A stretch of 64,000 nt of DNA, taken from assembly GCF_013167455.1 (NCBI RefSeq), contig NZ_CP038328.1; one strand, given 5' to 3'. Source of the DNA: Escherichia coli O157:H7. GTDB taxonomy: Bacteria; Pseudomonadota; Gammaproteobacteria; Enterobacterales; Enterobacteriaceae. Positions 27,001 through 33,000 of the stretch are shown here, in pieces. Each line of letters opens with the position of its first letter. The first letter of the stretch is position 1. The position numbers are program-made.

Positions 27001-30000
27001 CCAGCAACCGGAGAGAGTTCGACGGCGGCATCATTGCCCACGCCGGAGGTGCCGGTGGCTTCACGCACGGTACCGGGGCAGGTGGCGTTGATCCGCAGGC
27101 GCTTACGACCAGCGGCAACATCAGCACGCAGAGTTTCATTTTCAGCTCTCGCATCGGCTAATTCCCTCGAGTATTTTGCATCGAGCGCAGCAACATCACG
27201 CTGGCGCACCTGCATGTCAGTAATGGTGGCATTCGCCTGTTCCAGCTCTCTGGCTTTTTTATCGCGCTGCGCTTTGTAGGTGAGCGCGTTGTCACGGTAA
27301 TGGTTTGTTGCCAGCCACAGCGCACCACAGCCAACCGCCATGACAATAATCACCACACACAGAACACGGTTCATCTCTCTTTCACCCCACCAGTCCCGAT
27401 AACGTCAGGACTCGCCAGGCGGTGGAAAAGAAAATGGCAACCAGCATGACTAAAAATGAAATGCCGACAAGTACACAGAGGCTCTTCACCAGCGTTATGA
27501 GTTTATCTGATATCATTAGCCACCCCATCAATCCGCCTTTGTTATTTTCCCTTTGCCTGTATCAGCCAGGACAAAATCAATCAGCATATTCGCTTCATTT
27601 ACCAGCGTACGGATTTTTGATACATGCGCGGCTTTAACCTGTTTCCACTCATTCAGCCCGGTAGCAAACACACTGGCAATGTTTTTATCCCGTTTCATGT
27701 CAGCACAAGCCTGGTTGAGTTCTTCCATCACGCTCATTTTACGGGGATTAACGACAAAACCCTTCGTCCAGTACTCGTAAAGAACATCGTCGCACTCTTC
27801 CTGATACCGGATGACCTTATCGCGGATTTCGGGTTTTACTTTGTTGGGATTAATGGTTTGTAGCCAGCCGGCAAGTTTTCGAAGTGGCATGGACACCATA
27901 TTGCGTTGTTTCCCATCCTCAGCAACCATAACGATTTCCGTTATAGTTGACGCAAAACGCTGTCTTAACTTAGCCAACTGTGATTGCCAGGCCAGCCCCA
28001 TCCCCGCAACGACAGGTTTCATGGGAACGTATGGTTCGCCATTATGGTTAACTACATAAAGAGAGTTGCCGTGAAACGGCACGGCCATCATATTCATCGG
28101 TTATTTCCTTTTAGTGATGAACCTTGTCTCACAGGAATCCAGCCCACAGAAAGGCACCGACAGCCAAACCGGTATCCTCAAGGGTCATCCTGAAAGGTTC
28201 TGTGTTGTGAGATGCGCGTGAGATGCGCAGAAATGACAAAGGCATCATTACGGTGCCTGAGTGTTAAACAACTGTTTTGACTTTATTCACTTACATTTTG
28301 CCAATTTGCAGGATTTCGTGTTATCCGTCCATGTAAGCAAACCTCATTTTTCAGCAAAATATTCTGCTTATCTGTCGATTCCCCAGCACGCCAGCGCGCT
28401 CTCCTGGTCACGACGGGATACCTGACCGTAACAGTTATTTGAGCGAATACGGCAGTCCCTGCCACCGTCCTTAATCCACCAGCGAATCGCTTCGCAGGCA
28501 CCTTTTCGATCTCCTGCATTAATCCGTCTGTAAAACGTCGACGGGAAACACTTACCGGGGCCAATGTTGTACGGACAGAATGACGCAATCCCCGCTTTCT
28601 GGGGTTCGGTCAGTGGCACTCTGATGTTTTTCTCCACCCATGCCAGCGCCTTATCACGCTCAATGGCGTTAACCCGGTCGCATTTTTCCTTCGACAGCTT
28701 CATGCCAGGAATAACAGGCTTACCATCCACCCGGGTGGCTCCACGGCAGATGGTCCAGATACCCGCACCATCACGGTATGCTGTGGTGTGGTTACCTTCC
28801 TTTTCATCCAGAAACTGGTCGAGGATTTCAGGCGCAGACGCCCCTGCACCAATCAGCGCCAGAACGGCAGCCGACAGGCCGTATCTGATTTTTGCGTTCA
28901 TGGATATTTATCAGGGTTTATCGATTTCAAATCCCTGGATATGTTAAGTCTTCAGGCCAGCGGTGGAGTCTTCAGAGAACCCGTAATTATTCCCGGTAGT
29001 TTTCCTCTGTAGGTTATCAACACATCCTGCGCCTCTAAAATTACGGGACGCTTTTCCGGTAACGGACCATCCCCTTCACATAACCCGGCAGCAACATCCA
29101 TGAAAAACTGCTTCGCCTGCTTTTTCGCCTCAGCTTCGTAAAACTCCAGCGTGGCACCTTCAGTACGGTCAAGACTAATCGCCACATCTGGCAACAACAG
29201 TGACGGATACCCACCAATTTCCAGTGCCACAGTAACAGTAATCTTATCCGGGTAATTATTTATCCCTTTAACAACCAGTTCGTATTTTTTCTTCATCGCT
29301 TTACTCTCCCCGCGCCGCCTTACGACGGTCCTCTCTGATTTTGAAATACAGGTTAGTCAGATACGTCAGCAGGCCAAACAGCAGACTCCCCAGCACACCT
29401 ATCGCCACCCACTGGGACGGAGAGACTTTGTCCAGCAGCTGCAGTAACCAGTATCCCGTCCCCACCGCTGACGTGGTGTATGACACACCCGTTGTGATTT
29501 TTTCCATCTGGTACATACCCCGTCTCCCGCAATCCGGAAGCTCACAACAACAGGAGGGGCATCAGCTCACACCGACAGCCCCTGCGTATGGTTACATCAT
29601 CATTTCGCCGCCAGGCTGAGGCTCACTGCTACCGTCAGGCTGAGACACAACGCCATCTGAAACAGCACTGTCACCCGCGCCGTCTTCAGGCTCAGGAGCA
29701 GCCGGTCCCCCCAGCAGCTCATCCAGAATGGCATCCACTTCAGCATCAAGACGCGCCTCAAGATTCTGGCGGAGTTGCTGTTTCAGTGCGCTTCTGACTT
29801 CTTCAGAGCGCAGGACGTCCTTCACTGCTTCAGCAGTGACCAGAGATTTTATTTCTGACATGGGATTTTCTCGTTGAAAGGTGTTGTTAAGAAAGTTGCT
29901 ACGAAATGAGAGGCTCTTCGGGTTTTGTTCCGGCTGACTGGCTGGCGCTGATTTTTTCCGCCGCCGCGGCATCAATCTTTTTGCGTATATAGTTCCGGAT

Positions 30001-33000
30001 AACCTTATACCCGCCACTTACCAGATATAACGTGCACACCACCGTGCAGAAATACAATAAAATAAGCTGTACAAATCTCATTATCCCTCCCGGTTATTGA
30101 TATGGTGTTGACATCGTTAATACCTGTTGGTTAAAAAAGTGTCCTGCATGTTTTGCTTTGGATATAACGACATTTGCCGCCGGTTCTGGCTCCTTGTTTT
30201 CCCTGCCCCGGCGGCCTTTTTTTCCTGCTTACGGGTTATTCACTTCCACTGTTATACTTTCAATCAGCACCGGATATGTCGCACCGCTAGTGATATCGGT
30301 CACGCGCAATTTGTCTGCCGTAAACGTGCCGACCGGTGACTGTGACAGCATGAACGGCGTCCCGTCCTTACCATCAATGACCGGCGTCACCTCAATACTG
30401 TTGTTACCGGCAAAACGGAAGCCCAGCGTATGCCATTCGTTATCAAATGCGCCGAATGACCCCAGCTTCGTGTTCTGACCAGCATTTCCCTTGTGGTACA
30501 TCACATTAAGGTCTGTGGCATCGCTCTGTACGTAAAACGACGCCAGCAGGTTATGACCGGCATTACCTTCCAGTGTGACGCCCTGAGGCAGTGAAGAAAC
30601 CGGCCAGTACAGCGCCAGTGCGTACTGATTAGCTGTCAGTGTGCCATCAACTTTAAAACGACAACTGATAAGCCCGCCCTTCTCCAGCAGGTCTGCGCCA
30701 TTACCGGCATCATGCTGCATAAACCACGAGGAACTTCCTGTCTGTTTGGTCCACCTCAGCGCCTTACCTCCTGCAGCACCTGCATCATCAACTACCAATG
30801 CACGCCCTCCTTCAGCTCCCCATCCCTGCGGATTCAGTAAACCACCTGACTCTGTTGCACGGTAATAAAGCAGCGTTGTCACTGATTTCCCGTCCGTTGA
30901 CGGTGTTGATGGTGTGTCCGGTGACGGCTTCTCATCCGGCGGCATCACAACCTGTTCCCCACCCACCAGTTCAGCCGTCCGTCCTGCATGGAGAAGAATC
31001 GCTGAGGCAAGACGGTCAGAAATAATCCCCCTGCGTGCCCATGAGCTGAAATGGCTCGCACGGTCTGCTGACGTCCAGTTTGCCGACGTCCGGGAGGCCG
31101 CACCGTAATATCCTGATGCCGGAATATCCGGGTCTTCTTCCGGTTTGTTCGTCGGGACATTTGCTCCGTTCTCATCGGTCATGAACGGCACAAAGTGAAT
31201 ATTCTTTTCCGTTTTGTTTTTGTAACTGCCGTACACCGTCTGGTAAGTGGATTCGCTCTTCTGCTTCCAGAAATAAGTTGTGTCTCCACATATCCAGGGA
31301 ACACCGTCAGCAGAACCACCAGCGCACTGTCCCACCATATCTGCAAGGTCCGTACGATATTGTTCCACTACTTCTGTAAAACGGGCTGTGTGATTTGCTG
31401 GCGTTCCGTCAAAGTCAAATTCCCCCTGCATCCACACCACGGCAAGCAGCACATTTTTCGGGTTCTTTGCCAGCGCGGCTTTTGTACGACCGATGAGATC
31501 CTTATACAGCGGCCTGCCCACACCCCAGCGGGTAGAACTCTCTGAGGCACCGGTCACGTCACTGTATGTTCCATCTGCCCCGGTGGTGAAAGCTGAACCA
31601 CCACGGCAGCACGGAACCAGAAGAATACCCGCATTCGCCGGTATAAACGGCAGCAGCTTTTTGGCAATATGCAGCCCCTGCCCCACGGTTCCGTACTGAC
31701 CTTTCGACAGGTCAGCTTTCGGATGGTTAAGACGGCTCATGTCCTGTACATCATGCAGACAGTGGTCTGCCGGAATAATGTCGTTATATTTACAGGGAGC
31801 GCCATCCGGCGTCACTGTGCTGCGACGAGCCAGTTGCTTTATACGCGGGTCAGGACGGTCATATGTCTGCGGCAGAGGAAGCCCCTCACCGTAAGCCATG
31901 CCGTTCGACTGCCCGGCCAGTGGAATAACGTAGTAATAATCTGGCTCCGTGGTGACCACTCCCGGATAGCCACCATCCCCCGTGCCGGGCACAACCACTG
32001 GCGTGGTCACATCCCCCTCCGCGGCAATCGCCTGCATCAGGGTATAAGGGGTTATGGCCACAGGACTACCAAACGGCTGCCAGCCCTCTTTCAGTTTGTG
32101 TGTCAGCTTTTCCGCAAGATCTGACGGCGACGCCGCCCTGACAACATCATAATGTTTAATCGACATCGAATTTCTCCCGTGTACAGGAACAGAGTTAAAA
32201 AGCCGGAACCGGAATCAAATCACAGGATGACCATCTGCCAGTGGCTGGTCGTAAAAAAAAGGCCGCGCCATGCGCAGCCGGAAATAAAGGGATAACGATG
32301 ATAGTTTGAGAAAAACAGAAATAACACTTTTGTGGCAAAGCATGGTGCCGGGTGCCTCCCGGTGAATTCAGTACCAGCACCTGAATCCGCGATTATCCCA
32401 TATACCTGGTTGCTGATTGCCCCTCCGCACAGGGGGATTCACCATGCAGTAGTATTTTTAATAAACAGTAAACAAAAAAATCAAGCATTATGCAGGCTGT
32501 TTCTTTTTATCACCGGCCACAGCAATACCACAATGCCGCAGACCAGCCCCCCATCCGCCAGCACCGACATGATTCTGCTGGTGAAATCCACCATCACCAC
32601 CAGAAACAGCAGGAGTGCAGCCACAGCCAGACGCAGTTTTACCGTCACAGGTAATTCTCCAGACGAAGACCCAGAACACCGGCAATCTCTTCCAGCACCT
32701 TGCGCTCTTCCGGCTCAATTTCGCCGTCTGCCTCCGCAATGGCCACCGCCACATCCAGCACATCTTCCGCTTCACGCGTATCGTGTTTCACATCCTCGAT
32801 CTCACGTAACGCCGCACGACGACCAGTTTTAAAGTTCGTATCCAGCTGACCGATAATGGTTGCGCTAATCGCATTAATTTCTGACGTAAACGCGGACAGC
32901 GCTGGCTGATTACGCAGTACCTGTTCGATCTTCGCTTTCTAGGAAGCCTCACATTCACCATCTGCACAGGCCACCAGGTATGCGGCGTTAATCACCGCCT

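Follow-up and report, generated by a model that had tools for sequence, protein, structure and literature searches.

A stretch of 64,000 nucleotides from Escherichia coli O157:H7 (RefSeq assembly GCF_013167455.1, contig NZ_CP038328.1), hereafter the window, carries a prophage in which two small genes lie between nanS-p, coding for a sialate O-acetylesterase, and the gene for an S21-family class II holin. All genes at issue are on the minus strand, and coordinates are those of the window. An earlier note on this DNA had described two open reading frames (ORFs) here, coding for a 60-residue single-helix membrane protein and an 89-residue acidic protein, between nanS-p and a pinholin; both are found exactly at 29592-30081, and the description of products and neighbours is borne out. 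The first gene (29899..30081, 60 residues) belongs to Pfam family DUF1378 (PF07125; PHROG 494), and the second (29592..29861, 89 residues) to DUF826 (PF05696; PHROG 311). Read 5' to 3', this strand carries Q, a TerB fragment, DUF3927, an STnc100-type small RNA, a terminator, nanS-p, the 60-residue ORF, the 89-residue ORF and the holin, continuing with DUF1327/YdfR, a lysozyme, a P22-type antirepressor and Rz/Rz1. Comparison across phages and prophages reveals that the two genes form a mobile, co-inherited two-gene unit, a pairing newly described here. We suggest, at a probability of roughly 40%, that this pair may be an accessory to lysis, a module the phage can do without.

The 60-residue protein aligns with DUF1378 over residues 1-59 on profile positions 1-59 of 59 (135.7 bits, E = 5.8e-40; the Pfam gathering cut-off is 25 bits for both PF07125 and PF05696), and its ATG is preceded by a strong Shine-Dalgarno sequence, GGGAGG (GGGAGGGATA-ATG). 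A single N-terminal hydrophobic helix, at about residues 4-24, ends in a conserved SGG or AGG that leads into the conserved motif GG[YW]xxIRN[YW]. Next come a basic segment beside the membrane, with +5 in 12 residues, and a short C-terminal tail of Ala, Lys and Glu; in all, 36 residues follow the transmembrane domain, and the whole protein has a net charge of +4. AlphaFold2 models one continuous helix spanning residues 2-49. Because helix 4-24 is followed by a juxtamembrane charge of +5, the positive-inside rule predicts a bitopic inner-membrane protein in N-out/C-in orientation, with about three residues in the periplasm. In searches of the PDB, hmmsearch gave only chance transmembrane-helix matches to TRAP-gamma, and Foldseek gave no match with E < 1. 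At one related locus (L053, 1-1200), DUF1378 is truncated by an IS3-family element.

The 89-residue protein aligns with DUF826 over residues 1-73 on profile positions 1-73 of 75 (118.7 bits, E = 1.2e-34). It starts with ATG and carries a net charge of -12 (19 D/E, 7 K/R and 6 P). A conserved, amphipathic and helical N-terminal region of about 50 residues gives way to a variable, acidic, proline-rich tail ending in MMM or MML; in the AlphaFold2 model, helices occupy residues 2-7, 10-17 and 20-49, with a block-mean pLDDT (the per-residue model confidence) of 90-95 for residues 21-50, and residues 50-89 form a disordered tail. DUF826 is best seen as a soluble, strongly acidic, cytoplasmic protein. 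The PDB yielded no relative, either by sequence (hmmsearch) or by fold (Foldseek, no match with E < 1), and one scan of viral contigs with a distant, 69-residue DUF826 gave no further relatives.

ORFs of such size are common by chance, there being 102 of at least 25 residues within 7 kb. To judge the two ORFs we took 35 distinct alleles of the segment from 85 related loci and calculated the ratio of nonsynonymous to synonymous substitution rates (dN/dS) by the pooled Nei-Gojobori method, with pools of 21 and 26 distinct alleles. The ratio is 0.22 for DUF1378, 0.19 for codons 1-52 of DUF826 and 0.49 for the DUF826 tail, while the two alternative frames, read across those bases, are broken by stop codons and come out at 1.6-2.3. 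The ATG of DUF826 is served here by a weak ribosome-binding site (..CAACGAGAAAATCCC-ATG) within the conserved 37-nt spacer that follows DUF1378 (29862..29898); in a divergent homologue (locus L086) a strong GGAG stands ahead of the same ATG. Finally, the 490-bp segment is 100% identical across some 300 complete genomes of E. coli, the majority of them O157:H7. The Pfam and PHROG matches, the dN/dS values, the ribosome-binding sites and the identity of the conserved segment together show that both ORFs are genuine genes on which purifying selection acts. The earlier note had named lack of conservation as evidence that would speak against them; both genes turn out to be conserved.

That the real product is one longer protein, whether a longer DUF826 ORF or a frameshift fusion of the two genes, is highly improbable. 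Upstream of its ATG, the DUF826 frame meets no stop as far back as a GTG at 30017; the resulting 141-residue ORF (30017-29592) reads through the 3' portion of DUF1378 in frame +1, and the frame is open for 31-66 codons ahead of the ATG in 35 of 35 distinct alleles; such long forms have been annotated, and some database entries carry both domains. Yet over one and the same stretch of bases, dN/dS comes to 2.2 in the frame of the extension and to 0.24 in that of DUF1378; in L086 the GGAG precedes the ATG of the short form; and the form called by the annotation pipeline PGAP is that of 89 residues. The 141-residue ORF is thereby rejected as the true product and is best regarded as an annotation artefact. 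As the extension is non-coding, it lends no support to a programmed frameshift joining the two proteins, and a reading of the sequence revealed no slippery site for a shift into the required +1 frame. Among the annotated forms of 141-148 residues are P0121, phrog_8301 (PHROG family 8301 is built on the long form) and ST933Wp43 of phage 933W (NC_000924, locus L082, 4281-4773), whose 148 residues merge the non-coding extension with DUF826; the 933W reference annotation leaves DUF1378 unannotated. The annotation can therefore be corrected, in that the long DUF826 ORF (ST933Wp43, phrog_8301) overlaps an unannotated DUF1378 gene. Both Pfam domains occur together in proteins P0204, P0262 and P0264; these and P0115, where the change falls at an A5 run, are fused or shifted entries that look like indel or assembly errors.

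Both genes are already catalogued as DUF families, with no function assigned there. In the approximately 300 genomes with the identical segment, PGAP names the products 'DUF1378 family protein' (WP_001213059.1) and 'DUF826 domain-containing protein' (WP_001289717.1), and the earlier note overlooked both these long-standing Pfam families and the routine annotation. It was right that neither protein resembles a known antiholin, as scans of both against Pfam, NCBIfam and PADLOC matched only the two DUF families; neither matched a defence or toxin-antitoxin component of PADLOC-DB at E <= 0.01. In the literature, one paper notes both families between nanS-p and S, without more (PMC10462455), and no other naming both was found. 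Searches with the locus tags L0106, Z1467 and ECs1208-1211 led only to one microarray table, listing ECs1211. The supplements of enterohaemorrhagic E. coli translatomics studies have no entry for Z1466-Z1468, a paper on expression in Phi24B does not cover the pair genes, and the literature searched yielded neither ribosome-profiling nor proteomic data for the pair.

Among phage records, 309 carry DUF1378 and 307 carry DUF826. The pair is present in some 300 deposited Shiga toxin (Stx) and related phages, including 933W and VT2-Sakai (ECs1210/ECs1211), and in Stx phages it stands between stx/nanS-p and the lysis genes, as in 933W and Sakai Sp5. The order nanS-p, DUF1378, DUF826, holin is invariant in all E. 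coli and Shigella loci with enough sequence (85/85). Conservation differs along this block, the holin being 93-100% conserved and the pair 61-100%, and recombination joints fall inside it. One variant (loci L088-L091) has nanS-p, a 70-residue DUF1378, a 164-residue DUF826 member (Pfam 31.6 bits; hhalign 85%) and a holin of the HP1 type (PF16080).

Taken as a whole, DUF1378 is a tiny family: when 1.84 billion representatives are considered, its members fall into 39 clusters at 50% identity. A scan of one genome per species, made with the pattern of the GGW-type DUF1378 subfamily only, matched three species, all Enterobacterales (Pseudocitrobacter, Pantoea and Mangrovibacter). Distant members are found in phage BUCT709, in prophages of the same three genera and in metagenomic phages, and here DUF1378 is the final gene of the lysis cassette. 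It directly follows the gene for an i-spanin or o-spanin in 18 of 20 loci (some are redundant, leaving about 12 distinct); the gap between spanin and DUF1378 is -4 to +11 nt in 17 of the 20, and in 12 of the 18 the two genes overlap by 4 nt (ATGA). The cassettes themselves are of several kinds, with four holin families (PF05106, PF16931, PF16080 and PF04971) and three endolysin types (T4-type lysozyme, GH19 and muramidase). In two loci (L097/L098) the order is Q, a lambda-S-type holin, lysozyme, DUF7940, Rz/Rz1, an 86-residue DUF1378, a 69-residue DUF826 (Pfam 56.7 bits; hhalign 95.7%) and terminase, so that the pair has been kept at the opposite end of a lysis cassette. DUF7940, a small two-helix membrane protein of 68-87 residues, recurs between endolysin and spanin in cassettes ending with DUF1378 (L097 3271-3477; L100 3186-3449; L114 3972-4178).

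This coupling to spanins across otherwise unrelated cassettes is the strongest functional clue that we have, and it outweighs the evidence for optional cargo, given below, only slightly. One way to read it is that DUF1378 is a spanin-associated factor, for instance one that restrains or positions the i-spanin in the inner membrane. The spanin is indeed the invariant neighbour in the distant cassettes, where holin and endolysin families vary, yet in the E. coli lambdoid prophages the pair precedes the holin, with Rz about 2-3 kb further downstream, the pair in Mu-like prophages is not near a spanin at all, and the literature searched here gave no precedent. We therefore consider a spanin-directed role unlikely.

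The reading of the pair as an accessory to lysis can be framed more specifically, and with correspondingly greater reserve: DUF1378 and DUF826 might constitute an accessory regulator of lysis, made of two components, that has gone unrecognised so far and is independent of holin family, in effect a split releasin- or antiholin-like system. On either framing, both proteins would be made together with NanS-p, the holin, the lysozyme of signal-anchor-release (SAR) type and Rz/Rz1 from the Q-dependent late promoter. DUF1378 would serve as an anchor or sensor in the inner membrane, and DUF826 as an acidic partner able to engage the basic cytoplasmic tails that holins and SAR endolysins commonly have. 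On the more specific framing, DUF1378 alone would take this role where it closes the lysis cassettes of other Enterobacterales phages. We count the complementary charge of the two proteins (+5 in the juxtamembrane stretch of DUF1378, -12 in DUF826) in favour of the lysis-accessory reading. That four holin families are involved points away from a specific partner and towards a generic target, such as basic tails or membrane energisation.

A number of observations weigh against the lysis-accessory reading, the first two of them in particular against an obligatory role in lysis. An identical holin (WP_000284518.1) directly follows nanS-p, with no pair between them, in other E. coli prophages, and the enteropathogenic E. 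coli strain E2348/69 likewise has nanS-p and then the holin without the pair; overall, of 5426 E. coli genomes, 5162 have a holin of the S21 type, but only 1010 have holin plus pair. Abundant Mu-like prophages of E. coli carry gin, nanS-p, DUF1378, DUF826 (81 residues), orf66, com and mom, and there the block containing the pair is far from the Mu lysis genes; another Mu-like prophage has DUF1378 alone, after a tail-fibre assembly gene (Caudo_TAP), and both are classic sites for accessory genes. No characterised lysis regulator is detectably homologous to either protein (hhalign probability of 0.2% for Mu gp25; only the two DUF families in Pfam, NCBIfam and PADLOC scans), and AlphaFold2, run on the linker-fused pair with a locus-paired alignment, gave no confident complex (predicted TM-score, pTM, of 0.21) and so lends no support to direct contact between the two. 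Moreover, overlap of a gene with its neighbour is common in phages and is no proof of shared function. As regards optional presence, the antiholins encoded by T4 rI and rIII are also non-essential, so dispensability is in itself no argument against a modulator of lysis timing.

The pair is thus found at three kinds of site, namely both edges of the lysis cassette and the accessory region of Mu-like prophages. In the last of these, a conserved ORF of 66 residues (orf66) follows DUF826 and precedes com/mom (L121-L124 5321-5521, L086 5536-5736); it has no Pfam match and is not a holin by sequence. Such a distribution could also be explained if the pair were mobile, moron-like cargo unrelated to lysis, concerned for example with superinfection exclusion or with modulation of the host or its membrane, and lodged at permissive junctions between phage modules. 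These would be the junction of pR' cargo with S, that of the lysis genes with the packaging genes, and the right-hand end of Mu-like prophages. This explanation, junctions included, is a substantial possibility and ranks next after the lysis-accessory reading. It accounts for the optional presence of the pair beside an identical holin, for its moving, in company with nanS-p, a known fitness gene, into the interval from gin to com/mom of Mu-like prophages, where purifying selection on it is kept (pN/pS, the corresponding ratio of polymorphisms, 0.12-0.46), and for the solitary DUF1378 after Caudo_TAP at a Mu-like prophage end. The small size and Enterobacterales restriction of the family (39 clusters; three GGW-type species hits), and alleles that recombine independently of a far more conserved holin, are likewise as expected of cargo. 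On the other hand, the scan, which is insensitive, detected no promoter or terminator belonging to the pair, the 4-nt overlap with the spanin in about 12 distinct phages outside E. coli is unusual for morons, the probable expression from a late operon would speak against a function that benefits the lysogen, and no known defence or exclusion family was matched. The earlier note had proposed that the ORFs might modulate lysis or be small cargo genes. The first proposal gains from the spanin-adjacent homologues and the L097/L098 pair, the second from optional presence and the Mu-like site, and the two are not fully separated by these data; we take the lysis-accessory reading as the best available.

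The linkage to nanS-p invites a further explanation, that the pair aids the localisation, release or activity of the esterase. It is true that nanS-p, DUF1378 and DUF826 move as a block in both lambdoid and Mu-like prophages of E. coli, but nanS-p can be found with no pair beside it, in other genera the pair, or DUF1378 by itself, stands next to spanins where there is no nanS-p, and a membrane protein with almost no periplasmic part plus an acidic cytoplasmic protein offers no obvious export route. A helper of NanS-p is accordingly improbable. We give equally little credence to a small membrane toxin with an acidic, labile antidote, be this a toxin-antitoxin-like or abortive system or a second holin with its inhibitor. 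A small basic membrane protein beside an acidic, partly disordered partner does recall such systems; against this, DUF1378 often occurs without DUF826, the putative toxin comes first in the gene order, PADLOC returned no match, and the insertion in DUF1378 at L053 shows only that the gene is dispensable.

The surroundings of the pair suggest how it would be expressed. The gene for the antiterminator Q (34066-33245, PF03589) is followed by a short region (32481-32791) that codes for a TerB fragment and DUF3927, and then by an STnc100-type small RNA (32473-32307; Rfam RF02076, 101.6 bits) and a strong intrinsic terminator (32279-32261) called by a terminator scan downstream of Q and upstream of nanS-p. 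RNA and terminator (32473-32261) are probably the leader of the late promoter and a tR'-like terminator, and from this we infer that nanS-p, the pair and the lysis genes belong to one Q-dependent late transcript. Between the tR'-like terminator and the lysis genes no further minus-strand terminator or promoter was called, in scans that are insensitive, the promoter scan having missed the late promoter too. As to the region ahead of the leader RNA, the TerB ORF is 48 residues long and matches only the C-terminal part of TerB, a full-length TerB (about 141 residues) being seen in loci L102 and L119; the DUF3927 ORF codes for a membrane protein of 55 residues, and the TerB-DUF3927 pair also stands upstream of a holin in a Pseudocitrobacter prophage.

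nanS-p (30229..32166, 645 residues; Pfam SASA, DUF6645 and DUF1737), whose product PGAP names 'SASA family carbohydrate esterase', is separated from DUF1378 by 147 nt (30082..30228) containing an 8-bp GC-rich hairpin at 30176-30215; the same insensitive scan called neither a minus-strand terminator nor a sigma-70-like promoter in this spacer. On the plus strand (30111-30223), a TTGACA box (30111) is followed by the 8-bp GC hairpin and seven U, elements resembling the terminator of a short antisense transcript, with a fold z-score of only about -2 and no promoter called. The 75-nt spacer between DUF826 and the holin (29517..29591) contains a hairpin (AGGGGC..GCCCCU) and the ribosome-binding site of the holin. 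Its last ~50 nt are common to prophages with the holin directly after nanS-p, and would thus mark one edge of the insertion or deletion of the pair; in holin-only genomes, the match stops about 34 nt upstream of the start of S.

The holin gene (29301..29516, 71 residues; PF04971, 112.3 bits; PHROG 'holin') is annotated by PGAP as 'class II holin family protein', WP_000284518.1. Its product begins MYQMEK (29507-29516), with in-frame Met1 and Met4 like the dual start of S21, and the three-residue N-terminal extension has no basic residue; the extension of S21 has a Lys thought to be important for antiholin behaviour. The late lysis operon continues with DUF1327/YdfR (29296-28952, PF07041), a lysozyme with a hydrophobic, SAR-like N-terminus (28901-28368, PF00959), the P22-type antirepressor (28097-27528; P22_AR_N and ORF11CD3 domains) and, at the end of the cassette, the i-spanin Rz (26907..27374; PF03245, 135.5 bits), with an embedded ORF for the lipoprotein Rz1 (27154-26948). 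In strain PV15-279 (L001, 3464-5310), IS1203 splits the lysozyme gene beside an otherwise identical module. The antirepressor is located inside the lysis cassette, in the interval from endolysin to Rz, as it is in 933W. Between antirepressor and Rz lies a very hydrophobic ORF of 48/49 residues (27382-27531; RefSeq hypothetical WP_000539792.1), without a match in Pfam and PADLOC scans; it is another unstudied small membrane protein within the cassette. Elsewhere in the window are a sok antitoxin RNA of the hok/sok type (36097-36271, minus strand, 114 bits) and a P22-type sar antisense RNA (10100-10166, plus strand, 66.7 bits).

If the pair does contribute to the regulation of lysis, its position in the Stx phages would give this weight: the release of toxin is governed by the timing of lysis, and the pair has stx/nanS-p directly on one side and the lysis genes on the other. 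A regulator of lysis timing at this position would influence the timing and amount of Shiga toxin released from Stx and related prophages, which are present in about one E. coli genome in five.

How does the pair compare with known lysis factors? The dual-start antiholins (S21-71 and S107) regulate the type of holin that adjoins the pair, and the holin here keeps M1 and M4; a dual-start antiholin is, however, an extended isoform of the holin, whereas the ORFs of the pair are separate and match no holin family. An antiholin specific to the S21 pinholin was rejected as the sole role, since the pair, or DUF1378, goes with four holin families. The pair may also be likened to RI and RIII of T4, which are small, non-essential proteins, one membrane-tethered and one cytoplasmic, that modulate holin timing. 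The likeness is one of arrangement: RI acts in the periplasm, in which DUF1378 has almost no part, the T holin is unrelated to class II holins, and the Pfam scan gave no sequence likeness of the pair to RI/RIII.

Two experimentally characterised single-pass membrane proteins share the architecture predicted for DUF1378. The releasin of phage Mu, gp25 (DUF2730, PF10805), is a protein of 99 residues with N-out/C-in topology, whose cytoplasmic domain is anionic; its gene comes after the spanin, and SAR endolysin release depends on it (Chamblee et al. 2022, PMC9239132). As is predicted for DUF1378, it has an N-terminal transmembrane helix, a basic juxtamembrane stretch and almost no periplasmic part, with N-out/C-in as the predicted orientation of both. 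Its cytoplasmic tail is helical and mildly acidic, as are, in charge, the tails of the long-tailed stand-alone DUF1378 homologues; its gene is just past the spanin, as in the case of distant DUF1378; and its partner endolysins are of various kinds, some having SAR domains and some not. The pair in O157:H7 differs from gp25 in that anchor and acidic part would be on two polypeptides, a holin is present and the genes are upstream of it; placement within a few genes downstream of the endolysin, as for the releasin, does not apply to the pair in this window and is seen only for the distant DUF1378 homologues. Membership of the releasin family itself was rejected (hhalign probability 0.2% against the DUF1378 and DUF826 profiles; no PF10805 match). 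Lcc6 (SO_4795) of the Shewanella phage LambdaSo, with 65 residues, a transmembrane domain at 5-22 and a cytoplasmic tail of about 43 residues, is required for lysis with a pinholin and SAR endolysin (bioRxiv 10.1101/2024.01.23.576932). It is close to DUF1378 in size and architecture (60 residues, transmembrane domain at about 4-24, tail of 36 residues), and DUF1378 likewise adjoins an S21-type holin and a SAR-like lysozyme. Lcc6 is, however, essential for lysis and encoded near int/xis, far from the lysis genes, whereas the pair is dispensable for the S21-type holin that it adjoins, and the scan with the GGW-type DUF1378 subfamily matched no Shewanella and so gave no link to Lcc6. The Mu releasin and Lcc6 demonstrate that small single-pass membrane proteins beyond holin, endolysin and spanin can decide lysis. 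The comparison across phages, in which DUF1378 closes lysis cassettes with several holin and endolysin types and the pair is conserved at both edges of such cassettes, turns an annotation of 'function unknown' into a testable hypothesis.

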